From a phage: 64,000 bases of DNA. This document shows positions 1,875 to 62,897 of this stretch, one piece after another (the first letter of the stretch is position 1; every line of letters starts with the position of its first letter). The DNA lies in sequence record PV805632.1; one strand, 5' to 3'. Below the pieces are notes generated by a model that saw only the letters and a program-made list of their open reading frames with translations, was not told the origin of the DNA and searched no databases. The position numbers and the translations under genes were made by a program.

Positions 1875-3050
1875 ATGAACCAGATACCTCAGCACACACT
1901 TAGTGATGAACAACTCATGCGTGAGTATGACCGTATTCAGGCGCAGGCATTTCTTGGACGCAGTGCAGCGTTTTTTGGTTCATTGCTGTGTAGTCTTAAG
2001 TTCTCATGGAAACGTGAGGGCTGTCCCACTGCATGTACCGATGGGATAGAACTCCATTTCAACCCAGACTTCTTTATCTGGATGTGCCCTGATGCAAGAG
2101 AAACGGTGCTAATGCACGAACTCTGGCATGTGGCATACCTACATGGCATCCGTTGTGGAAGCCGTGACCCAGAAGTCTGGAACCAGGCATGTGACCACTT
2201 CATTAACCTTCAGTTAGAGGAAGATGGTTACAAGTTCACTGGTATCGACGAAGGCATTTGCAAAGACCCTCAATATAAAGGATGGGTCGAAGAAGACATC
2301 TACGATGACCTGATGAAGAACCCTCAGAAAAGGCAGAAGCCGTCAGGGGGTGCTGGAGCAGGTCTTGCTGGCGACATGAAAGCTCCCTCTTCGGGGCAGT
2401 CCCAGGGTGCTGTTGTCAACAACGTAGTACGTGCAATGCAAAGCCAGAAGATGGCTGGTGGAATGATGCCCGGTAAAGGTGCTGGTCGTATGGAAGAGGT
2501 TATTACCCAATTCCTTAAACCAGTGGTTCCTTGGCAGGAAGTCCTGCTGAACTTCTTTACCGACATTGATGGTACACACTATACGTGGGCCAGACCTAAC
2601 CGTCGTTTCACTGACGTCTATCTACCTTCTCTGGAAGATGATGAAGGACGCTTACGACACTTAGCCTACTTTGAGGATGTATCTGGTTCTATTAGTAGTG
2701 CTGACTCTCTGCGTTTTAACTCAGAGGTTGCCTACGTTAAGAGCCAGTTCAATCCTAAGAAGATGACCCTAATTACCTTCGACGATATTATCCAAGAAGA
2801 AATAGACATCACTGAAGAAGATACTTTTGAAGAGATTAAGATTACTGGTCGTGGTGGTACAAACCTTGAACCAGTGCGTGAATGGATCATTAAGAATAAG
2901 CCAACCGCTGCAATCATATTCTCCGATATGTATGTTCGTCCTATGGAAGAATTGCCATTTGATATCCCTATCATCTGGTGTGTTCTGAATAATCCTAATG
3001 CTACCGTACCTTTTGGGGAGGTAGTTCATATCCCTAAAGGAATGAAATAA
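1875..3050 (+). CDS. VWA-domain protein (MIDAS motif) with HExxH-like motif, partner of the MoxR-like ATPase
   Basis: MIDAS-like DVSGSIS, HELWH motif; ATG at 1875 chosen because the track start at 1641 overlaps the upstream gene; ATPase-VWA pairing is a known arrangement. Confidence 0.65.
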   Translation: MNQIPQHTLSDEQLMREYDRIQAQAFLGRSAAFFGSLLCSLKFSWKREGCPTACTDGIELHFNPDFFIWMCPDARETVLMHELWHVAYLHGIRCGSRDPEVWNQACDHFINLQLEEDGYKFTGIDEGICKDPQYKGWVEEDIYDDLMKNPQKRQKPSGGAGAGLAGDMKAPSSGQSQGAVVNNVVRAMQSQKMAGGMMPGKGAGRMEEVITQFLKPVVPWQEVLLNFFTDIDGTHYTWARPNRRFTDVYLPSLEDDEGRLRHLAYFEDVSGSISSADSLRFNSEVAYVKSQFNPKKMTLITFDDIIQEEIDITEEDTFEEIKITGRGGTNLEPVREWIIKNKPTAAIIFSDMYVRPMEELPFDIPIIWCVLNNPNATVPFGEVVHIPKGMK

Positions 3051-3556
3051 TGATTGTTAATGGTAATTCTCTATACCGTTCATCTCAATTGCTGGATGTC
3101 CCAGACCGTAAGGTATCCGAGCATGGTGTAAGCTATGGATTAGGCGAAGCTGGTTATGATATTCGTATCAAACAAGACATTACCTTCTATCGCTTATTTG
3201 GGTTAATTCCAATGGTGAAAATCGTTGATGGAAAACAAGTATCACGCCATCTCGGTAAATTCGCATTGGCTTCAGCAATTGAGAAATTCAACATGTCTCC
3301 GTCCTGTGTAGCTATCGTTCACGATAAGTCCACATGGGCAAGACGTGCATTATCTGTGTTCAATACCGTAATAGAACCAGGATGGAAAGGGTATCTTACC
3401 CTCGAACTGGTCTATCATGGTCGTAAGAAACTGCATATCCCGGCTGGTGCTGGGATAGCTCAAGTATTATTTCATCTGGTTCAAGAGCCTGCTAATTACA
3501 ACGGCAAGTATCAGAACCAGGAGGACAAACCAGTAGCTGCAAGAAGCAGTAAATAA
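3050..3556 (+). CDS. dcd: dCTP deaminase (dUTPase-superfamily fold)
   Basis: 168 aa; start overlaps upstream stop (TAATG); sequence resembles dCTP deaminase family from memory. Confidence 0.7.
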   Translation: MIVNGNSLYRSSQLLDVPDRKVSEHGVSYGLGEAGYDIRIKQDITFYRLFGLIPMVKIVDGKQVSRHLGKFALASAIEKFNMSPSCVAIVHDKSTWARRALSVFNTVIEPGWKGYLTLELVYHGRKKLHIPAGAGIAQVLFHLVQEPANYNGKYQNQEDKPVAARSSK

Positions 3557-4222: not shown

Positions 4223-4666
4223 ATGCGTATCCCATTCCTAAGAAAAAGGGAACGAAATCCTGTTCTTTATAATAAAGGCATAGAGGATGAGTACGAACTC
4301 AACCGTAAAGCTCGTTCCTACGCAACAAAATTATTCATGGGGACTAGCAACCCTAATAGATTACTGGACTTTGTTTTCGAACAAGTCTTTATCATATACA
4401 GCTTAGCTATGTCTGCTGGTTCACAAGAAGTAAGTGATAAGGCAAGATATGCTCTCTGTATGCTCCGGAAAGAGTACGAAGCCATCCTGTATGAAGACTT
4501 GTACTCCTTTAAGAAAGAAACCGCTGTAGCGTGTTCTGTGGCTCTTACTGAAGGTATAGCAGTATTACAAGAACTGCCCCGTAGTGAGTTTAAACTGGTA
4601 TATGTCCAGGCCAGGAGAATTACAGAAAACCGTAGTGGTATTACCAACTATCTAAGGTCATTCTAA
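4223..4666 (+). CDS. hypothetical protein
   Basis: 147-aa ORF; stop overlaps thyX start (TAATG). Confidence 0.5.
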   Translation: MRIPFLRKRERNPVLYNKGIEDEYELNRKARSYATKLFMGTSNPNRLLDFVFEQVFIIYSLAMSAGSQEVSDKARYALCMLRKEYEAILYEDLYSFKKETAVACSVALTEGIAVLQELPRSEFKLVYVQARRITENRSGITNYLRSF

Positions 4667-5610
4667 TGATTAAGGCAACTGTCATTGCAGATTCCGTTCA
4701 TCATGTAACGGGTACTCGTATTACTACCTTTGAATTGGTTTATCCTCGATTCATTCACAGTGAGTTTATGACCCACCGTGTATTCAACCGCAATGCTTCA
4801 AGTAGTCGTGCTATCCCTACTTCTAAGTTTATTGAACAGGTTCGTAATGAACCAGTAATGCCAAGTCACTGGGGCAAGAACCAGAAAGGTATGCAGGCAT
4901 TTGAAGAATTGTCTGAAGACCAACGTAGTGATGCAACCTTTATCTGGGAACAGGCTGCATCCAGTGCTGCTACCTATGCAGAAATGCTACGTCGTGGACA
5001 AGTACATAAGCAGATTGTTAACCGCATTCTGGAACCATTCACACATATCCGTGTAGTGGTAACTTCAACTAGCTGGGCTAACTTCTACGGCTTACGTGAC
5101 CATGAGGATGCCCAACCAGAAATTCGTTTACTGGCTCAGGCCATGAAGAAAGCTCATGAAGAATCTGTTCCGCAAAAGCTCAAGAAAGGTGACTGGCATC
5201 TGCCTTATATTCGCAGGATTGATTGTATTAACGCTTACGATCATTGCAAATATCAACGAGTTACTTGTGATAAACCAAGTGATGAAGAAGTTTTAGGCTT
5301 ACTGCTTAAAGTCTCTGCTGCTCGTTGTGCTCGTGCCTCCTATAACAACTTTGAAGGCAAGCCATCTACTATTAGTGATGACCTTGCTCTCTTTGCTAAG
5401 TTGGTAGAGAAACAACCAATACATGCATCACCTACTGAGCATCAAGCTACCCCTATGGACTTCAGTACCAAGTTTGTTAACAACCAGAACCCATTAACCT
5501 GGGAACAAGGTGTTACCTCTATGGACCGTGAAGGTAAGCTGTATTCTGGTAACTTAATGGATTTCATCCAATTCCGTAAACTAATCCCCGGAGAAACAAT
5601 TACAGAATGA
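4666..5610 (+). CDS. thyX: FAD-dependent thymidylate synthase ThyX
   Basis: ThyX signature RHRVFNRNASSSR (RHRxxxxxxxSxR) at residues about 37-49; 314 aa. Confidence 0.85.
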   Translation: MIKATVIADSVHHVTGTRITTFELVYPRFIHSEFMTHRVFNRNASSSRAIPTSKFIEQVRNEPVMPSHWGKNQKGMQAFEELSEDQRSDATFIWEQAASSAATYAEMLRRGQVHKQIVNRILEPFTHIRVVVTSTSWANFYGLRDHEDAQPEIRLLAQAMKKAHEESVPQKLKKGDWHLPYIRRIDCINAYDHCKYQRVTCDKPSDEEVLGLLLKVSAARCARASYNNFEGKPSTISDDLALFAKLVEKQPIHASPTEHQATPMDFSTKFVNNQNPLTWEQGVTSMDREGKLYSGNLMDFIQFRKLIPGETITE

Positions 5611-9358: not shown

Positions 9359-10462
9359 ATGAAAATCGAACTGATTTCTATCATCGCACTGGCAGTTGAC
9401 AGTCGAAACCTCACACTGTGGAAGCCTGATGGCTCCACGGTTGTATACCCTCAGAGCGACCCACGGGTTGCTCGTATTGTATCTGAAGCACAGACTAAAG
9501 GTCTGGGCACTACCCAGGATCAAATAGAAGTAAACATTGCACCAGAAGTAGAACTTCGTACTGAATACCTGGAAGCAGAGAAGAACACCAACGGATTCGT
9601 TCGTTTCTTTAAGGTAGCTAAAGCTAAACTCAAAGAGTTCTTCGAAGATGGTACAGGTGTTTCACCAGCCCGTACCGTTTCAGATATTAAGCTGGGTAAT
9701 CCTACTAAGACACTAGTGTCTAAAGCTATGGATACTTTTCTGGCTGTCCAGGCTAATGAACCAGAAGTAACGGTAGCAGATGGTTACTACGACAAACGTG
9801 ACAATCTGATGTGGGTTACCGGTTGGGATAAAGACCATAACCATCTTGCACTGGTTCGTTTTATTGACTACGTACTTTGTTGGAGTCATAAGCATACTGA
9901 TCATATTCTTGCACAGGAGTGGCCTATTGCAATTCGTGCAGTATCTGATGATGAAATGGGTGAGTTTGCTAAACAAGCCCAATACATCAAAGGTGTACAC
10001 ATTGTATTTACCAACCGTGGAGAAACACCACTGCCTTACGTGGAAGTAGCTAAAACCTCGAACCAGGATAAGCTGGCTGCTGCTTCAGAGAAACTGGCTG
10101 CATTAGGTGCTATCAGTACTGATGACACTAACTTCCATACTGATGTGAAGGAAGATGAAGTGGTTGTTGCTGTTACCAACAATGGGGTTATCCCTGGGGT
10201 TGAGAACCTGCAACGCCACCTGCGTCAGTCTGCCAAGCTGAAAGACTATAAGGGCTTTACTAAGTTCCTTGAGCGTCTGGCTCCGGTTATTAAAGACCGT
10301 CTGCACTCAGTGGAAGACCTGATGAAGTTCATGGAAACTGCTGAACTGCCTATCGCTGATGATGGCTCTATCCTGTTCCTGAAACGACTTAAGTTCAGAG
10401 GTGAAGAAATGGTAAGCGTGTATTCGTTGACTGTCACTCAGGCAACATTCGTCAGTGGGTAG
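9359..10462 (+). CDS. rIIB: rIIB-like protein, N-terminal segment (possibly a frameshifted single gene with 10543..11403)
   Basis: 367-aa ORF immediately after rIIA; the next frame is open from 10405 and the two ORFs together give about 680 aa; assignment by position and size only. Confidence 0.45.
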   Translation: MKIELISIIALAVDSRNLTLWKPDGSTVVYPQSDPRVARIVSEAQTKGLGTTQDQIEVNIAPEVELRTEYLEAEKNTNGFVRFFKVAKAKLKEFFEDGTGVSPARTVSDIKLGNPTKTLVSKAMDTFLAVQANEPEVTVADGYYDKRDNLMWVTGWDKDHNHLALVRFIDYVLCWSHKHTDHILAQEWPIAIRAVSDDEMGEFAKQAQYIKGVHIVFTNRGETPLPYVEVAKTSNQDKLAAASEKLAALGAISTDDTNFHTDVKEDEVVVAVTNNGVIPGVENLQRHLRQSAKLKDYKGFTKFLERLAPVIKDRLHSVEDLMKFMETAELPIADDGSILFLKRLKFRGEEMVSVYSLTVTQATFVSG

Positions 10463-10542
10463 GTTGTAAAGTACAGGTACGAGAAGACCTGGTAGACCCT
10501 GACCGTCGTCAGGACTGCTCTAATGGTCTGCACGTAGCATCT

Positions 10543-11403
10543 ATGAGCTATATCCGTACCTTCGGTGGTAACGTAACTATCCTTGGTAAAGTAGCACCAG
10601 AAGATGTATTTGCTGTTCCTGAGTACAACACTAATAAGATGCGTGTAGCTGCGTATCACATTATTGCTGAACTACCAGAAGAGGAACGTTGCAACGTTAA
10701 CAATGGTATCTATCTGTCTAATACAGAAGTGGGTAAGAAGTTACTTAATGATGCCATCGTTGGGAACCATAGTTCACCTACCACACTTGTTATGGTTGGT
10801 GGGCATCGTGGTACTAACCTCAAATACACCAATCTATCGTCTGGTTCTGTAGAACAATTCCGTACAGTTGCTAATAAAGAGGCACTGAATATGGAAGAGT
10901 CACTGAATGAAGCTGTAGCTGCTGAACCAGTGAAGGCTACTGACCTTAAACCTATTGTTAATAAGGCTCCTACCGTGAAAGAACAAATCCAGGAACTGAT
11001 TAAAGAGTTCCTTAACGCTGCTACTCCAGAAGATAAATTAGCTGCTGCTGATTTACTTGTGGAAATGCGAGGTAAGGCTCGTAAGCCATGGGCTGCTTTA
11101 GGTGTTGGTTCCGATGTGGTATCTAAGATTGCTGATGTACGTAGTACTCGCATTCCTGCACCAAAAGCGAAACCAGTGAAGAAAACTAAGGTTCACCGTT
11201 CGGCTACTGCTACTAAGGTAGCACCGTCTGGTAAACACGCTGATAATCTGCGTAGCATCCTGAATGATACGTCCTACTCTGACTATCAGAAAGGTCATGC
11301 TCTGCAAGACTATAAGCGTCATGCTAAGAAGTCATTCACTGCAATGGGTCTGACTGAAGAAGAAGCTAAGTTAGCTACCAAGCTGGTCAAGGCCGTTAAG
11401 TAA
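10543..11403 (+). CDS. rIIB-like protein, C-terminal segment (frame open upstream to 10405, no RBS at ATG 10543)
   Basis: 286-aa ORF; its frame continues 46 codons upstream and overlaps the end of 9359..10462. Confidence 0.4.
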   Translation: MSYIRTFGGNVTILGKVAPEDVFAVPEYNTNKMRVAAYHIIAELPEEERCNVNNGIYLSNTEVGKKLLNDAIVGNHSSPTTLVMVGGHRGTNLKYTNLSSGSVEQFRTVANKEALNMEESLNEAVAAEPVKATDLKPIVNKAPTVKEQIQELIKEFLNAATPEDKLAAADLLVEMRGKARKPWAALGVGSDVVSKIADVRSTRIPAPKAKPVKKTKVHRSATATKVAPSGKHADNLRSILNDTSYSDYQKGHALQDYKRHAKKSFTAMGLTEEEAKLATKLVKAVK

Positions 11404-11418
11404 TAGCCTGTTCAAATG

Positions 11419-11442
11419 CCCTCACTTATAATAAAGTGAGGG
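11419..11442 (+). promoter_or_regulatory. 9-bp stem-loop just after the rIIB-like stop (terminator-like, no U-tract)
   Basis: CCCTCACTT-ATAATA-AAGTGAGGG. Confidence 0.4.
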
Positions 11443-11465
11443 TAAATTTGAAGAGGAAATGTACT

Positions 11466-11861
11466 ATGAGTTCTGTATACAGAGTTAATCGCAAAGCAAC
11501 TGATGAAGACATCATTCGTATGAATGCTGTTGGTCTGTCCCTCGCAACTATCGCTAAGACGTTGGGGGTTCACCCCACTACGGTTACTTTGCGATTGCGT
11601 TCTTTAAACATTGAACCAGCCGACACACGTCGGACGTTCATGGAGAATGTACTCCGTCCATTACCAACCCATGTGGTAGATTGGCTATCAGAGCAAGTTG
11701 GTCCTGCTTATGAGATTCGTTCATATGTAAGGGACTTGATTCTGGAGGCATATAATAATCGCCACCTTAACCAAGAGAGTGAGCATGACAAGTTCATCCG
11801 TTTGTACGCTGGAAAACACACGGCAATGGTTTCTAAAAGCCGTACCAAATCCGACGAGTAA
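11466..11861 (+). CDS. small putative DNA-binding protein (helix-turn-helix-like)
   Basis: ATG 11466 with AAGAGG 9 nt upstream; segment GLSLATIAKTLGVHPTTV resembles an HTH. Confidence 0.45.
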   Translation: MSSVYRVNRKATDEDIIRMNAVGLSLATIAKTLGVHPTTVTLRLRSLNIEPADTRRTFMENVLRPLPTHVVDWLSEQVGPAYEIRSYVRDLILEAYNNRHLNQESEHDKFIRLYAGKHTAMVSKSRTKSDE

Positions 11862-11882
11862 GAATATTAGTACCCAGATTGG

Positions 11883-12239
11883 TTGCCATCTGGAAGAAGT
11901 AGAGGAAATGCTTCAGACCATTTATCCAATGGTAGTTACGATGCAGAACTACTACAACGTGCACAGGATGCCATTACAAATCTGGCAAACCATATGAAGC
12001 GTAAGGCCGATGCCTACCGTATTGACGTTAGTACTGACCTGCTGGATGCACTGGCAGACCAGATTGTTACAGCAACTGGCGTCGGTACTTTCCTTGGGAT
12101 GAATGTCCCCGGAGCATTGGCTGAGGTCAATCGCTCAAACTATTCCAAGTTCGAAGATGGGGAACCTATCTTCAACGAGAACAAGAAAGTCATGAAGGGG
12201 AAAGATTATACTCCCCCTGATTTAAAACCTTACATCTAA
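11883..12239 (+). CDS. putative MazG-like nucleotide pyrophosphohydrolase, C-terminal part (N-terminal motif lies in another frame, 11779..11997)
   Basis: TTG-start ORF; LLDALADQIV and EVNRSNYSKF resemble MazG-like helices; HLEEVEEML (EExxE-like) is in the overlapping frame. Confidence 0.35.
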   Translation: MPSGRSRGNASDHLSNGSYDAELLQRAQDAITNLANHMKRKADAYRIDVSTDLLDALADQIVTATGVGTFLGMNVPGALAEVNRSNYSKFEDGEPIFNENKKVMKGKDYTPPDLKPYI

Positions 12240-12259
12240 CCCTCTACGGAGGGTTTTTT
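12239..12259 (+). terminator. rho-independent terminator
   Basis: ACCCTC-TACG-GAGGGT followed by TTTTTT directly after the stop codon. Confidence 0.6.
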
Positions 12260-12272
12260 ACTGGAGATTTAA

Positions 12273-13583
12273 ATGTTTTCCAAACCTACCAAAGCCCCAT
12301 TGAACCAGGGGCAAGAAGCGGTTGCGAAGGAGTTCTTCGACTTCCTGCTCGACCCTAATGCCACAGAGTTCGGAATCAGTGGACCTGGAGGAACTGGTAA
12401 GACATTCCTGATGTCGCACCTCATTGATGACACTATGCCTGCATATATGGAAACCTGTTCTCTAATGGGAACCAAGCCTCTGTATAACGAAGTTGTCATG
12501 ACTGCGACCACGAACAAAGCTGCTGAAGTTCTGGCTCAAGCTACTGGGCGTCCAACGTCTACCTATCATTCCTTCCAGGGGCTGATTGTTAAGAATGACT
12601 TTAAAACCGGTGAGGCTACTGTCGTACCGTCTAAGTCATTCGCTATTAAGAAGAACAAAATCATCTTCGTAGACGAAGCATCCATGATTGACCGTCAATT
12701 ACTTAAGTATGCACGTGAAGGCACTCACCAGTGCAAACTGGTATTCGTAGGTGATGCTTCTCAGCTTCTGCCTGTTAAAGAGAGTAAATCTCCAGTGTAT
12801 GCTGGCAATATTCCAACACACTATCTGACTGAACAGATGCGTACCGATACACCAGAACTCAAAGCGTTGCATCAGCAATTGCGTGATACGGTGGAAGGTA
12901 AGACAGGCTTCCTGCCTATTAAATGTATTCCAGGCATTATTGACTGGGTACAGGGGGAAGAGATGGAGAAACTGGTTCTCAGTCACTTCACTCAACCCAC
13001 CAATAGCCGCATTGTTGCTTACACCAATGACCAGGTTATTAATTACAATAACTACATTCGTGAAGCTAACGGTTACGTGGGGGAATATTCCATCGGTGAG
13101 CAGCTAGTTTCTAACTCAGCCGTTCGCTTGGGCGTGGAAGACCGTCTGTCTATTGAGCAGGACGTAAAACTTATTGACCAGGATAGTAGTACTCGCATGA
13201 TTCAAGTCACGGGAGACCTGGAACTGGAAGTCCGTGATAGTACTCTAGACCTTGGTTATGGTGGTATTGTTAGTGAAGTACCAGTTCCTACCGACCCAGA
13301 CTACTTCAACCGTTTGGTTAAGTGGTTAGGTAAAGAGAAGAACTGGGAACCTTACTTCCGCCTTAAAGAAACCATTCCAGACCTGCGTGCTACTCATGCA
13401 TGTACTGTTCATAAATCACAAGGCTCTACTTACGACACAATCTTCATTGATGCAAATGACCTCTCAAGCTGTCGCCAACCTGATATGGTTGCCCGTCTGC
13501 TTTACGTCGCTGTGTCTCGTGCCCGTAAGCGAGTAGTGTTCTATGGCAATCTTGCCAGTAAGTATGGTGGTCTAACTTTCTAA
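12273..13583 (+). CDS. SF1 DNA helicase (Dda/RecD-like)
   Basis: Walker A GPGGTGKT, Walker B IIFVDEASM, C-terminal helicase-like motifs (TVHKSQGST, VAVSRAR). Confidence 0.8.
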   Translation: MFSKPTKAPLNQGQEAVAKEFFDFLLDPNATEFGISGPGGTGKTFLMSHLIDDTMPAYMETCSLMGTKPLYNEVVMTATTNKAAEVLAQATGRPTSTYHSFQGLIVKNDFKTGEATVVPSKSFAIKKNKIIFVDEASMIDRQLLKYAREGTHQCKLVFVGDASQLLPVKESKSPVYAGNIPTHYLTEQMRTDTPELKALHQQLRDTVEGKTGFLPIKCIPGIIDWVQGEEMEKLVLSHFTQPTNSRIVAYTNDQVINYNNYIREANGYVGEYSIGEQLVSNSAVRLGVEDRLSIEQDVKLIDQDSSTRMIQVTGDLELEVRDSTLDLGYGGIVSEVPVPTDPDYFNRLVKWLGKEKNWEPYFRLKETIPDLRATHACTVHKSQGSTYDTIFIDANDLSSCRQPDMVARLLYVAVSRARKRVVFYGNLASKYGGLTF

Positions 13584-17015: not shown

Positions 17016-17299
17016 TGACTAAGCTCTCCGGTGGTCTTAATAACTACTATGTAGTTTCAATTAAGAATCCCCAACGGAAAGAGCAAGAGCCATATCAAGC
17101 AGAGTGTGAGGATATTATCCAAGCACTGGGCATGACCTTCGATGAAGGTTGTGCCTTTAAAGCTCTATGGCGAAATGCTGCTGCCCGTATGGGTAATGGT
17201 AAACCTGGCAACTCTTCAGTGTACGACTCAGAGAAGATTGTGCATTATGCCAATCGAATATTGAAAAAGGCTTACAATGAAAGTAACCAACAATCATGA
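17015..17299 (+). CDS. hypothetical protein
   Basis: 94-aa ORF, overlaps the upstream stop. Confidence 0.45.
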   Translation: MTKLSGGLNNYYVVSIKNPQRKEQEPYQAECEDIIQALGMTFDEGCAFKALWRNAAARMGNGKPGNSSVYDSEKIVHYANRILKKAYNESNQQS

Positions 17300-22615: not shown

Positions 22616-23065
22616 ATGCAAATCGTTCTGAACCAGTCTGAAGTTGAAGCTGCTATTGAAGCTTATGTAAATGAGCAAGTTAATCTTGCCGGGGACATTA
22701 ATATCCTGGTGAATGCAGATGGTACTGCCACTATCGGTATTAATGAAGAGGCCGGTCATAGTGATGACACTCCCCCCGTGGTAGAGAAGAAGACTCGTCG
22801 TTCTCGTAAGAATCCACAAGAAGCCAAACACCGTCCGGTAGAACCGGAACCGGTTGTTGAGGATGAAGCTGAAGAAGAGGTAAAGGAAGAAGAAATCCAG
22901 ACCTCTACTGGTGGTGTGAACGGGAGTTCTACGCCGGAACCTGAAGAAGTAGTAGCTGAACCAGAAGCACAAGAAGAAGTTGTGCAGGAGGAAGTTAAGG
23001 CAGAAGAACCAGCAGAGAAACCTGCTGCGAAGCCTTCACTGTTCGCTGGCCTAAAACGTAGTTAA
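22616..23065 (+). CDS. acidic hypothetical protein
   Basis: 149-aa ORF rich in E/V/P low-complexity sequence. Confidence 0.45.
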   Translation: MQIVLNQSEVEAAIEAYVNEQVNLAGDINILVNADGTATIGINEEAGHSDDTPPVVEKKTRRSRKNPQEAKHRPVEPEPVVEDEAEEEVKEEEIQTSTGGVNGSSTPEPEEVVAEPEAQEEVVQEEVKAEEPAEKPAAKPSLFAGLKRS

Positions 23066-23296
23066 TCTGGTAGGTGGCTCAGAAGCTGCTGCTAGGTGTG
23101 GTAGTGTTTATAGTCCTGATGCTACTACTGGTCAGGATTATAGACGTGTCGGCTCCATACATAGCTTTTATCATCACTGTCATTATCCTGTGGAAATGCA
23201 GTGGTAAACACGGTGGTGACAAGCCGCCAGAATAACAACAACCGAACCAGTGGATTGGAATACTCTCCCCAGTCCATTGGTTCAACCGAGGCTAAT

Positions 23297-23467
23297 ATGA
23301 ACAAATTTACTATTCACTGGCTCAATGGAATAGTTAGTTCTTTCATGGGTGGGGAACCTGTTGAAGGAAACAAAGCATTCCACATTGATTCAGAAGGCTG
23401 CAAAATCTTAGTACCATACGCTTGGTATAAGAATGGTGAAGTTGAAGCATTGAAAAAGAGCAGTTAA
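23297..23467 (+). CDS. hypothetical small protein
   Basis: ATG 23297 with GAGG 8 nt upstream; the longer track ORF from 23201 lacks an RBS. Confidence 0.4.
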   Translation: MNKFTIHWLNGIVSSFMGGEPVEGNKAFHIDSEGCKILVPYAWYKNGEVEALKKSS

Positions 23468-38960: not shown

Positions 38961-39443
38961 TTAACGGGTTAGTTTATTAGCTGCAATGTAAGCGTCAGCC
39001 GAAGACTGGTCACGGTTCTCTGCTGTAGCACGACTACGAGCACGGTCTTCCAGTGCAGTGTTATAAGACTTAATCTGATTATTCAGGTTAGTGTTAGTAA
39101 CGCTCTTAGCAAAGTTCAACTGGTTTTTGGCTAACTTGTTAGCCTGGAAACCGCCATAGATATTGGCTAAGGAACCAAGTGCATCCAGACCTAGTTGGAA
39201 GGTAGGAATGTTCATGCCCAATTGGTCAGTCAAGCCTGAATCGTTACCAGAACCAAACAAAGAACTATCCAAACTACCATTTAAAAAATCCATGCCAACT
39301 GTTTGTCCGGGCCGATAATTCATTGCCGGAGTACTAAAGTTTTGCTTCTGGTTGTTACCAGATAACCAGGACAAAGCCCCTGGCTGAAGGGTTTGGTTGC
39401 CTGTTAAGAATGACAAATCCATGGGGATTCTCCTGTTAAACAA
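38961..39443 (-). CDS. hypothetical virion protein
   Basis: 160-aa ORF in the structural operon. Confidence 0.45.
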   Translation of the reverse strand: MFNRRIPMDLSFLTGNQTLQPGALSWLSGNNQKQNFSTPAMNYRPGQTVGMDFLNGSLDSSLFGSGNDSGLTDQLGMNIPTFQLGLDALGSLANIYGGFQANKLAKNQLNFAKSVTNTNLNNQIKSYNTALEDRARSRATAENRDQSSADAYIAANKLTR

Positions 39444-41571
39444 GGTCTGTATTAAGAGTCATATCAGAGTAGCTGCCAATCATGTTTAAAGACATGTCAG
39501 CTATATCCGAACCAGTCATAAGAGTACGTGAGAGGAAAGAATCCAACGACTCCATTGACACAAATTGCATAGGGTCAATTACACCCTGCCCAGCAGTACC
39601 AAACATTTCTTCATACTGCTTATTGATTGCCATCATATCAGTATTGTACTGCTGCATTACATTCTCTGCTTTCTGAATAGTAGCAGCCGTAGATGCATTA
39701 ATATACTGGCTAATACCATTACCTACTGAACTGGTAAGCTGCATAATGTTCTGAGCATTCATCATTTCACCGGCTAAGGTAGATAAGGATGTACCAGTAG
39801 ACATAGCAGTACCAACGTTCATAGCCACCATTGAAGCAATAGCAGCAATGATAAAACCTAGCTTATCACCAAACAGAGAAGTGGATACTTTAGTGACAAT
39901 AGATATCATAATCATTGCAGCAATGGCGTTTGCTACAGCACCTACTATTACAGCAGCTAATCCAACAAAACCTAGCGATGCACCAACTGCACCATAAGCC
40001 CCAAGAATACCTGCACCACCAGCACTACCAGCACCCATAGTAAATACGGATATAACGACAGCAACTACAACAACCACAATCTTAAAGGCAGAGGACTGAT
40101 ACCACTTTTTCTTAACCTTTTTATATGAGTTCATTACTAAGTAAGAGCAGGCAGTAGATAACTGAGTGCTACGAACTAGTGACATTGAACGATAGATGTT
40201 GGTGTGCAGGGGAATAATGAATCCACTCTCTTCTGCATCACCCATTGCTTCAGCAACATCAATATTTACTGACTTATTTTTATATACCTTGTTGCTATGA
40301 TGAAGGCCCAATACCCTAAGTTTACGGTAGGTATTATTACCATCCTGCCAAAGCAACTCATATTCTTGCATAGTATAAAACGTAGGGGTAACTTCCAGCT
40401 TTTTGCTAGCACCAGCACGCATGTTCTTACGGGTAAGGGTTATATCCCCTGCATATCTGGCTCGAAGTTGTCCTTGTTTAGCACCAGCCCATGCTTCACC
40501 GGAATGGGTAGTTTCAAATACGTAGTTCCAACTAATAGTCATATCATACTTATAATGCTTACTACTATGCACCCTAAACTCCCGCTTAGGTATAACAGGG
40601 TATTCTGGCAGAGGTGGAGGTGTTCCAACAATTTGACCTTCCTGCCTGTTCCACCATTCCTCATATGCATCAACTGCATCATTTGCTGCCTGATAACCTG
40701 CAATCACTGCTTCCAGTGTAGGGTAGGTTGGATCAGGTGGAAATGCTTCAGTAGCCATCTGAAAGAAACGGTAGATGTATTCCTTAGCAGTATCTTCTGG
40801 AGTATTAAGAGATACACCGAATGTGCCATAGATGTATTGAATATCGCCTATGTCATCATTCTTCTTAAGCTCAGTCACTACTTTATCTAGCTTACCACCA
40901 GTAGCTTTATAGAGTGCCTTCTTACAGTGGGGGTAGATTGTGTCATTCTCTACCCATTGCTTATCATTCCTGATTGGAATAAATGGATAGAATCGGTTAT
41001 CAGTAGCCTCAGTTTCAAACAGTGAATCGAGTGTAGCGTTACCTGAGTTCTTCTTATAGATAAGCATCTTAGGTGTACCAACAGCAGTCATCTCAGTGTC
41101 AGTACGAGTAGTCTGGGATGAGTACTTACGAACCAGTGTCTCTGTGGTCGTGGTGATTGTATCTGTGCGAGTAACACCACCACCTAAATTAACTACATTA
41201 GTGGTTACAGTAGTACTGGATTGAACCTCACCGAACTTTCTATGAGTCATTACCCTATCAGATACAACTACAGTTACATCATCAGGCTTCTCAGTGAATC
41301 CTCTACGGTAAACCTTAACGTAAGAGTTCCAGTTATCCACACTTGGTACAGTAACAGTACTGTCTTCATATGGTCTACCATCAGAGTAAACAGAATGAAT
41401 CTGTATAGTCTTAGTAAGATTGGTTGTGTTAGCCGTCGTATTACTTGAGATGGTAGTCCATAACAGAGTAGACGGTAAGTCATTTTCGCTGTTATAGACA
41501 GTAGTCGGACCTACTACCGGTGGATTGGTAGCCGGGGACTTATAGAACGTGTAATCAGCATAGAGATACAA
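39436..41571 (-). CDS. virion structural protein, C-terminal part (likely one gene with 41514..42086)
   Basis: 711-aa ORF with TTG start and no RBS; its frame is open upstream to 41643 and overlaps the preceding ORF. Confidence 0.5.
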   Translation of the reverse strand: MYLYADYTFYKSPATNPPVVGPTTVYNSENDLPSTLLWTTISSNTTANTTNLTKTIQIHSVYSDGRPYEDSTVTVPSVDNWNSYVKVYRRGFTEKPDDVTVVVSDRVMTHRKFGEVQSSTTVTTNVVNLGGGVTRTDTITTTTETLVRKYSSQTTRTDTEMTAVGTPKMLIYKKNSGNATLDSLFETEATDNRFYPFIPIRNDKQWVENDTIYPHCKKALYKATGGKLDKVVTELKKNDDIGDIQYIYGTFGVSLNTPEDTAKEYIYRFFQMATEAFPPDPTYPTLEAVIAGYQAANDAVDAYEEWWNRQEGQIVGTPPPLPEYPVIPKREFRVHSSKHYKYDMTISWNYVFETTHSGEAWAGAKQGQLRARYAGDITLTRKNMRAGASKKLEVTPTFYTMQEYELLWQDGNNTYRKLRVLGLHHSNKVYKNKSVNIDVAEAMGDAEESGFIIPLHTNIYRSMSLVRSTQLSTACSYLVMNSYKKVKKKWYQSSAFKIVVVVVAVVISVFTMGAGSAGGAGILGAYGAVGASLGFVGLAAVIVGAVANAIAAMIMISIVTKVSTSLFGDKLGFIIAAIASMVAMNVGTAMSTGTSLSTLAGEMMNAQNIMQLTSSVGNGISQYINASTAATIQKAENVMQQYNTDMMAINKQYEEMFGTAGQGVIDPMQFVSMESLDSFLSRTLMTGSDIADMSLNMIGSYSDMTLNTDLV

Positions 41572-42086
41572 AGCACCTGGTTCAAAGTTAGTAGGTGTGA
41601 ATGTAATGGGGGAACTCCATCTAAGGAGGTCATAGTGATTACATTAGTATCTTCATCAATGTCTATGTCGAATCGTTCCATGATTCGACTTGGGGCATTC
41701 TCATAAAGATACTGATCACACCATTGCTCAAAGTCAGCAAAGCCAATCTCTGCTGCCTGAACATAGACAGATTCTCCAGCAGGTGGGGTAATTTGATCCT
41801 CTATAACAGTAGGGTCAATCTTAGCCAGTACACCTAACGAAGAACCTGCCATACCAACTTCTGAATCATAGTGATTCTTACTCCAGCTAGAAAACAGTCG
41901 CATACGTATACCAGGCCCCTTCAGATAACTATCAGAGATAGTGTCTGCCATAGTGAATCCTGTATCAGCAACAATCTTACCGATGACTACAGTCTTCATA
42001 TAGTTTGGACGCTTGTGTATATCCCCTGCCATGTTATAGACAGAGGATGCTACGTATACTTTGGTCTTACTACTGAATAAGCCCAT
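41514..42086 (-). CDS. virion structural protein, N-terminal part (possible frameshift at GGGGG 41607-41611)
   Basis: 190-aa ORF overlapping the 711-aa ORF by 58 nt in another frame. Confidence 0.45.
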   Translation of the reverse strand: MGLFSSKTKVYVASSVYNMAGDIHKRPNYMKTVVIGKIVADTGFTMADTISDSYLKGPGIRMRLFSSWSKNHYDSEVGMAGSSLGVLAKIDPTVIEDQITPPAGESVYVQAAEIGFADFEQWCDQYLYENAPSRIMERFDIDIDEDTNVITMTSLDGVPPLHSHLLTLNQVLCISMLITRSISPRLPIHR

Positions 42087-61128: not shown

Positions 61129-61206
61129 ATTTTTGCATGTCAAAAATGTGATAGTTATGTATGGCTACAGTGGTGTGGCTAGGGCTACACCCTTACACGT
61201 TAACTA

Positions 61207-61220
61207 CCCCCCCCCCCCCC
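61207..61220. repeat. homopolymeric poly-C tract (14 nt)
   Basis: CCCCCCCCCCCCCC read directly from the sequence. Confidence 0.9.
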
Positions 61221-61326: not shown

Positions 61327-61650
61327 ATGACTACTACCGCTACTGTACGTATGACCGCAGGAACTCTGCTGGGTACTGTTAACTCTGCTGCTACTACTGT
61401 TGCAGATTCATTCGGTGCTGCTACTAAAGCAGTTGGTATGCTTAATTCTTACGTAGCTACTATGGCAAAGAAACAAGCCATTCGTACTAAATTAGAAATG
61501 CATACTTTCGAAAACAAATTAGCTGAAGAAACAGCTATGAACGAGACTATGCGTAAGAAAAGTATCGAAGAATTCTGCAAAGATCCAGAAAACGCTCGTA
61601 TCTACAACGCAGAATATTCAAGAATAATTGACATCCTGTCTAAAGACTAA
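61327..61650 (+). CDS. hypothetical protein
   Basis: ATG 61327 with GGAG 8 nt upstream; the longer track ORFs run through the poly-C tract. Confidence 0.45.
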   Translation: MTTTATVRMTAGTLLGTVNSAATTVADSFGAATKAVGMLNSYVATMAKKQAIRTKLEMHTFENKLAEETAMNETMRKKSIEEFCKDPENARIYNAEYSRIIDILSKD

Positions 61651-62070: not shown

Positions 62071-62454
62071 ATGTCTATTCAAAAATTCACTTTCGGTCAA
62101 TCTAACGCTGCTGCTACTTCTACTGCTAAAACTGATAAACCAAAAGCTCAGTTCTGGCTGAACATTGGTTATGTAGCTAATGAAGGCTCTGATGATGAGA
62201 AATTCATCTCGCTGCCTACTGGTATTCCACTGGATACTCAGGAACCACTGCCAACTAACAGCAGCAATGCTGACTTCCGTGCTATGCGTTGTGCACAGAA
62301 CGATTTGTTAGAACAGTTAATCGAATATGCTCAGAACCTGAAACCAGGTGAAGAAGGCATCATTAACCTGCAAGTTCAACTTCGTCGTGTGAAAGCAGAG
62401 GCTGCTGACATCCCAGCAGACGAGAATAAATATGCTCGTAAACTGACTTTCTAA
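62071..62454 (+). CDS. hypothetical protein
   Basis: ATG 62071 with GGAGAG RBS; the track start at 61978 lacks an RBS. Confidence 0.45.
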
Positions 62455-62463
62455 TCAACCACT

Positions 62464-62492
62464 GGACTCCCTTCGGGGAGTCTTTTATTTTT
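62464..62492 (+). terminator. rho-independent terminator
   Basis: GGACTCCC-TTCG-GGGAGTC followed by TTTTATTTTT. Confidence 0.65.
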
Positions 62493-62597
62493 AACTCAGC
62501 GATAAACTAAGTTTAACTTTTAGGGGCTTTTCGACGAAGAGTCACTAAAACTTAAACGTAAACAGAAGCAGATAACTTAGAGTAAGGAGTAATCAAG

Positions 62598-62897
62598 ATG
62601 CGTACACTATGTAACCGTTATAATCCAACCGGACTGATTAACATCATGGCCTTATATGGTAGCAAAATGACTTATGGTGCTCGTTGGCAAGTGTCTGTAG
62701 AAGACAAGAATGGCAAATGTCATGACCACTACTTCGTAGCTAAGCCTACTCGTAAACAAATCCGTAAACTTCACAAAGTACGTAAGCATTACTTACTAAG
62801 TAAATGCTACGAATGTGGCAAAAGGATAGAACTAGGTAAAGAATTTACTTTTGATGATCTCAACTATGCTCACAATAACTGCTTAGGAACTAAATAA
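62598..62897 (+). CDS. hypothetical protein with Cys/His cluster (possible zinc ribbon)
   Basis: CHDH ... CYECGK ... HNNC. Confidence 0.4.
   Translation: MRTLCNRYNPTGLINIMALYGSKMTYGARWQVSVEDKNGKCHDHYFVAKPTRKQIRKLHKVRKHYLLSKCYECGKRIELGKEFTFDDLNYAHNNCLGTK

Follow-up and report, generated by a model that had tools for sequence, protein, structure and literature searches.

A gp36-type nucleotide pyrophosphohydrolase gene of a G7C-like coliphage, split over two reading frames by a one-base deletion that is probably a sequence error

The DNA analyzed here, a stretch of 64,000 nucleotides from sequence record PV805632.1 (the window), is that of a G7C-like Gamaleyavirus (Schitoviridae; N4-like coliphage). 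In megablast searches against GenBank phages, it was 97.8% identical to vB_EcoP_G7C across 11400-12300 and 96-97.5% identical to G7C (NC_015933) in the two 25-kb stretches tested, and identity of 96-97.8% with G7C extends through nearly the whole window. The order is circularly permuted relative to G7C, in that a tblastn search with G7C proteins placed G7C gp1 at window position 61327 onward. The window therefore runs through the genome ends, implying that it comes from an assembly that was circularly permuted or had its repeats collapsed. A poly-C tract at ~61200-61220 (14 C, versus 7 C in G7C) falls in the region where the G7C annotation places the terminal repeat. Four HNH homing-endonuclease genes of G7C (gp24.1, gp41.1, gp47.1, and gp2.1) have no counterpart in the window by tblastn, the corresponding gaps lying at ~1865-1885, ~17260-17280, ~23060-23300, and ~62450-62600, and gp41 is matched over only the first 85 of its 156 residues, beside one of these gaps. 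Losses and gains of HNH genes of this sort are typical presence/absence variation of mobile endonucleases.

The locus that concerns us comprises the following features.

11466..11861 (alternative start 11436), plus strand: gp35 ortholog, a 131-aa helix-turn-helix (HTH) protein, 100% identical to G7C gp35
11779..11997, plus strand: N-terminal ORF, GTG start, 72 aa, containing QWFLKAV and IGCHLEEVEEMLQ
11785..11928, plus strand: codons 1-48 of the gp36 ortholog (MTSSSVC...EEVEEMLQTIYP), frame = position mod 3 = 1, 100% to G7C gp36 aa 1-48 by tblastn
11883..12239, plus strand: C-terminal ORF, TTG start, 118 aa, containing DLLDALADQIV and EVNRSNYSKF
11928..11929, plus strand: site of the one-base deletion, AA here versus AAA in every relative
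11928..12239, plus strand: codons 49-151 and stop of the gp36 ortholog (NGSYDAELL...PPDLKPYI*), frame = position mod 3 = 0, 96% to G7C gp36 aa 49-151 by tblastn (at 11928-12236)
11929..11997, plus strand: out-of-frame tail of the N-terminal ORF (MVVTMQNYYNVHRMPLQIWQTI*, from translation)
12238..12262, plus strand: terminator-like hairpin AACCCTC-TACG-GAGGGTT with T-run (consensus scan only)
12273-13583, downstream of gp36: Dda-like helicase gene (gp37 in G7C)

gp36 belongs to a module for replication and nucleotide metabolism, in which it follows the gp35 HTH gene and precedes the Dda/RecD-like helicase gene, and the gene order (rIIB, gp35 HTH, gp36, Dda/RecD-like helicase) equals that in the G7C, ShWW44, and Bas96 annotations. 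The gp35 product, annotated in G7C as hypothetical, HTH, gives weak Pfam matches to HTH_38/HTH_23, and its cluster has 284 members in a collection of ~15 billion predicted proteins. The terminator-like hairpin lies directly 3' of the gp36 stop codon, ahead of the Dda-like helicase gene, and its sequence is kept in relatives. The original prediction had noted an overlap between the N-terminal ORF and the 3' end of the upstream HTH gene. The overlap is there, but it is not a product of the frameshift: it is native, because gp35 and gp36 overlap out of frame by 77 nt (window 11785-11861) in G7C and Bas96 as well.

Both ORFs, at 11779..11997 and 11883..12239, are present in the ORF list exactly as first described. 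The N-terminal ORF reads ...TRQWFLKAVPNPTSKNISTQIGCHLEEVEEMLQTIYP and then continues with 22 unrelated residues, carrying MVVTMQNYYNVHR; its match to the PHROG profile stops at residue 48, and the tail at 11929..11997, homologous to nothing, is a by-product of the deletion. The C-terminal ORF reads ...NGSYDAELLQRAQ...DLLDALADQIVTATG...EVNRSNYSKFEDGEP...PPDLKPYI, has TTG as its sole start, and shows no homology to anything over its first 15 residues. When each piece was compared with phrog_671, "nucleotide pyrophosphohydrolase," the N-terminal piece alone matched profile positions 532-580 (1.2e-4) and the C-terminal piece matched positions 578-657 (3.6e-24), showing that the pieces abut on a single family profile. 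The joined protein matched at 2.5e-32 over residues 8-151 (profile positions 538-657). The MazG-like resemblance of the two ORFs thus lies well beyond chance. If they were instead unrelated, independent small genes with MazG-like motifs by chance, Pfam and NCBIfam might be expected to match neither, as is indeed the case. Yet this reading fails on the abutting PHROG matches, on the absence of homology upstream in a C-terminal ORF with a TTG start only, and on the matches of both pieces to one continuous 151-aa protein read in a single frame in its relatives (at E <=1e-3, 1231 homologs when clustered at 90%, N4 gp36 among them at 67% identity, and 3115 representatives when clustered at 50%). 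We regard it as effectively ruled out, and it is close to certain that bases 11785-12239 are the ortholog of the 151-aa gp36 of G7C and N4.

The point at which the frame changes could be located exactly. Every relative reads CCAAATGG where the window reads CCAATGG, and alignments with G7C, ShWW44, and Bas96 open a single gap, with TATCCAAATGG in the relatives and TATCC-AATGG in the window. The same single gap appeared against a Logan contig whose encoded protein is 99% identical. Reinsertion of one A yields a 151-aa ORF, 147 of whose 151 residues (97%) are identical to G7C gp36, with 12 synonymous and 4 nonsynonymous codon differences, and all 4 variant residues are also present in the intact homolog P0001. 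The sequence after the frameshift is free of any sign of decay. That the lesion is exactly one base is close to certain. The original prediction, a frameshifted MazG-like gene of an N4-like phage with a region to be checked around 11930-11990, is therefore borne out in the phage (G7C-like), the gene (a gp36 ortholog), the superfamily evidence (below), and the position of the frame change, a one-base deletion at 11928-11929. As regards the frameshift itself, the break is there, but it probably reflects a sequence error rather than biology, for reasons set out below.

The break is confined to the window copy. A single frame, with no stop within the match, was found in all 46 IMG/VR loci encoding a relative (37-96% identity), 45 of which span the gene, L055 being cut by the contig end. 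Likewise, all 13 GenBank phages alignable at the site span 72 nt against the 71-nt query and so have the extra base. Exact searches with deletion-bearing 25-mers and 31-mers returned no match in viral, metagenome, or genome collections, and exact look-up among ~15 billion predicted proteins returned no truncated gp36 product. Members of the PHROG 671 group have a single uninterrupted ORF of ~140-155 codons, whereas the window copy is split at 11928. Shorter homologs of 110, 120, 144, and 147 aa were considered as possible frameshift products and rejected, since all four lengths read the intact frame, those of 110 and 120 aa beginning at its internal methionines M42 and M32. They are start choices by gene callers avoiding the 77-nt overlap. 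Many automatic annotations start gp36 internally in this way, giving 110, 120, 144, or 147 aa, so that the conserved N-terminal helix is partly or wholly missing from the product.

A tblastn search of all 78 G7C proteins against the window showed that only three genes are split between frames, namely rIIB, gp36, and gp53. According to the base-level indel list, all three splits result from single-base deletions in short runs, with no compensating indel: AAAA to AAA in rIIB, AAA to AA in gp36, and CC to C in gp53. The two other genes are as follows.

9359-11403, plus strand: rIIB ortholog (G7C gp34, 681 aa), break at ~10407-10410, GAAGAAAATGG in place of which the window has GAAGAAATGG
39439-42086, minus strand: gp53 ortholog, 883 aa, break at ~41616, GGAACCTCC in place of which the window has GGAACTCC (plus strand)

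In rIIB, residues 1-350 lie in one frame and residues 351-681 in another. The extra base was present in 40 of the 40 relatives listed at the rIIB site (the best 40 of 56 records) and in 40 of the 40 listed at the gp53 site (the best 40 of 57 records). The 14 core genes of N4-like phages include gp53 but not gp36 (PMC4193335), and from its position the gp53 deletion would cut the 883-residue product short at about residue 160. A one-base difference also occurs at window 4202, where the T-run behind a terminator-like hairpin is T6 versus T7 in G7C; it is intergenic and otherwise resembles the three coding deletions. The two deletions on the plus strand (rIIB, 10404-10413; gp36, 11924-11935) share the local context AA[A]TGGTA. 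As a systematic cause this context was rejected, other AAATGGTA sites in the window being intact, and it stands as an unexplained coincidence. It may be either just that or a context-specific base-calling error.

Could the two-frame layout be functional? Near 11928, programmed ribosomal frameshifting (-1 or +2) or transcriptional slippage might allow full-length gp36 to be produced, and the AA[A]TGGTA context common to the rIIB and gp36 deletions is the only site-specific hint of it. A shift would have to occur within 11862-11997 to rescue the protein, and this interval contains neither a full nor a partial slippery heptamer X_XXY_YYZ in the required frame, nor any homopolymer of at least 5; across the whole gene, no homopolymer exceeds the C5 at 12213. 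The single frame kept in 46 of 46 IMG/VR relatives and 13 of 13 GenBank phages also speaks against recoding, as do the unaffected AAATGGTA sites elsewhere and the gp53 deletion, which has a different local context. We consider such recoding exceedingly improbable. A broader possibility, that the deletions are genuine and either gp36 and rIIB are still made by unrecognised recoding at AA-TGG-TA or the phage is viable without intact rIIB, gp36, and gp53, is in our estimation very improbable.

The main rival explanation is that the deletion is real, a very recent inactivating frameshift in this lineage that would make gp36 a nascent pseudogene. Its product would then be a 70-aa N-terminal peptide consisting of the EExxE helix and 22 junk residues; the C-terminal fragment would be at most untranslated or internally initiated, and neither fragment would form the helical-bundle active site. 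Such a loss may be tolerated, as gp36 is absent from the 14 N4-like core genes (PMC4193335). The lack of decay in the flanks (12 synonymous versus 4 nonsynonymous differences) fits a very recent event and an error equally. The host supplies nucleotide-sanitising enzymes of its own, a further point in favor of this reading. Set against these considerations are the two other unique one-base deletions in the same sequence, in the core gene gp53 and in rIIB, and the absence of the deletion allele from every collection searched. On balance, we judge a real mutation to be unlikely, at perhaps one chance in a few.

We favor the alternative that the missing A in gp36 is a single-base error of sequencing, assembly, or consensus calling, because the window has three unique one-base deletions in short runs, this lesion among them, and one of the three cuts a core gene. 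A viable phage with deletions in rIIB, gp36, and the core gene gp53 together is improbable, and three unique -1 errors in 64 kb are what an unpolished long-read or flow-based assembly would produce, which favors a sequence error. Some points argue the other way: sequencing errors classically fall in long homopolymers rather than in runs of 2 to 4 bases, replication slippage also produces genuine one-base losses in short runs, and a real knockout of gp36, which lies outside the core set, could be tolerated. Our reading is drawn from the sequence alone, and with those points weighed we hold an error to be the probable cause. The real phage most likely carries one intact gp36 ORF.

Several lines of evidence place gp36 in the all-alpha (MazG-like) NTP pyrophosphohydrolase superfamily. 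The G7C protein, encoded by a single 151-codon ORF, is named "nucleoside triphosphate pyrophosphohydrolase family protein" in RefSeq, and in Bas96 the same gene is annotated "nucleotide pyrophosphohydrolase." Besides phrog_671, the joined protein matched two profiles named "MazG-like pyrophosphatase," phrog_2144 and phrog_12019, at 6.2e-5 and 2.1e-4, respectively. Neither ORF, nor the joined protein, had a relevant match in Pfam or NCBIfam, and none of the curated clan models (MazG PF03819, PRA-PH PF01503, MazG-like PF12643) passed, the relatives giving only sub-threshold PRA-PH and MazG-like matches. The "MazG-like" label of the original prediction consequently holds at the level of the superfamily only and not for Pfam, where no MazG-clan model reached threshold; gp36 is a member of no curated Pfam family within the superfamily.

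A profile built from 97 diverse members, mostly 37-52% identical to the first sequence, matched PDB entry 3nl9 at 3.3e-7, with DR2231 and a "MazG-related protein" (2yxh) below threshold. A 26-sequence profile searched against the PDB had returned spurious coiled-coil matches such as SMC6, which were discarded; a second homolog search with the profile added little extra diversity, and a single-sequence phmmer search of the PDB returned only DR2231, at a non-significant E of 0.43. Residues E37, E38, E41, D92, T96, N119, K122, K135, and K138 are invariant in the 97 sequences, and K72 and D88 are nearly so (D88 >=90% conserved).

A first AlphaFold run, on a shallow alignment of 29 sequences at least 66% identical, gave a pLDDT of 58, and Foldseek returned nothing meaningful with it. 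AlphaFold2 with the 97 diverse representatives predicted five helices with a pLDDT of 96.3 and a pTM of 0.87. This model matched predicted viral structures in BFVD at E values of 1e-9 to 3e-3, under the names "NTP-PPase-like protein," "MazG," "MazG-like nucleotide pyrophosphohydrolase," and "NTP pyrophosphohydrolase, DR2231-like"; those named NTP-PPase-like or MazG fell at 1e-9 to 2e-4, with TM scores of up to 0.8. Against the PDB, Foldseek with the good model placed DR2231 in the top 14 ranks at a non-significant E of ~1-3 and a TM score of ~0.4, and it did not return 3nl9. These weak PDB scores may stem from modeling as a monomer a protein whose working form is probably an intertwined dimer.

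The model also indicates what the deletion separates. Codons 1-48 span helices 1 and 2 (residues 8-19 and 25-43) with the invariant EExxE motif (E37, E38, and E41), and codons 49-151 span helices 3 to 5 with K72, D88, D92, N119, K122, K135, and K138; the carboxylate motifs EExxE and D-x-x-x-D lie on helices 25-43 and 84-103. The deletion falls at residues 48/49, in the loop joining helix 2 to helix 3 (51-73). On this model, one fragment would have the first metal-binding helix, the other the C-terminal lysines together with D88 and D92, and neither could form the active site alone.

By analogy with the superfamily, intact gp36 would hydrolyse (d)NTP to (d)NMP and PPi, with Mg2+ held by the carboxylates of EExxE and DxxxD. 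We found no experimental work on N4 gp36 in the literature; in N4-like roseophages, mazG has been counted with the auxiliary genes for nucleotide synthesis (PMC11934525). More speculatively, gp36 may act between two enzymes of the phage, dCTP deaminase (window 3050-3553) and ThyX (window 4666-5607), supplying dUMP from dUTP. We propose this role, which is plausible, because these two enzymes are encoded and the G7C annotation contains no dUTPase.

These results bear mainly on annotation quality. gp36 is an already known gene with a trivial lesion, probably an error, from which an automatic gene caller will report two meaningless small ORFs, in addition to a split rIIB and a split gp53. The locus is properly described as a single gene for a gp36-type NTP pyrophosphohydrolase in which one base is missing, probably through sequence error, and the three lesions flag the whole sequence for polishing or read-level checking. 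Were the deletions real, gp36 would be dispensable and, more surprisingly, gp53 too. The gp36 family itself is large (3115 clusters at 50% identity) and is captured by no Pfam model.

Among named relatives, PRA-PH (PF01503), of the MazG clan, is the only Pfam family recurring among gp36 members (9 of 26 at E <=1; 6 of 97 at E <=0.01, the best at 5.7e-4), although no member reaches the gathering threshold for PRA-PH or for MazG-like (PF12643), and the window protein matches neither. DR2231 of Deinococcus radiodurans (PDB 2yeu, 2yfd, 5hva, and others), a MazG-like all-alpha dUTP pyrophosphohydrolase, is likewise a small all-alpha protein with carboxylate metal ligands on helices, and it aligns weakly in sequence in the LLDALADQIV...EVNRSNYSK region, but its scores are non-significant (E ~0.4-3, TM ~0.4) and no shared substrate specificity can be claimed. 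The likeness to 3nl9, a structural-genomics entry for a "putative NTP pyrophosphohydrolase," extends over profile positions 34-144, where the alignment takes in the EExxE and D-x-x-x-D helices as well as the C-terminal N-x-x-K...K-x-x-K-P/G-x-x-W/Y-x-P motif; it is nevertheless remote, 3nl9 being a bacterial protein of 171 aa, "putative" by entry name. The closest counterparts are the phage proteins themselves. N4 gp36 (YP_950514.1) has the same position and is 67% identical to the repaired window protein, and G7C gp36 (YP_004782165.1) likewise lies after the gp35 HTH gene and before the gp37 helicase gene, shares the 77-nt overlap, and is identical at 147 of 151 residues. Unlike both, the window copy is missing an A at 11928-11929 and consequently occupies two frames.
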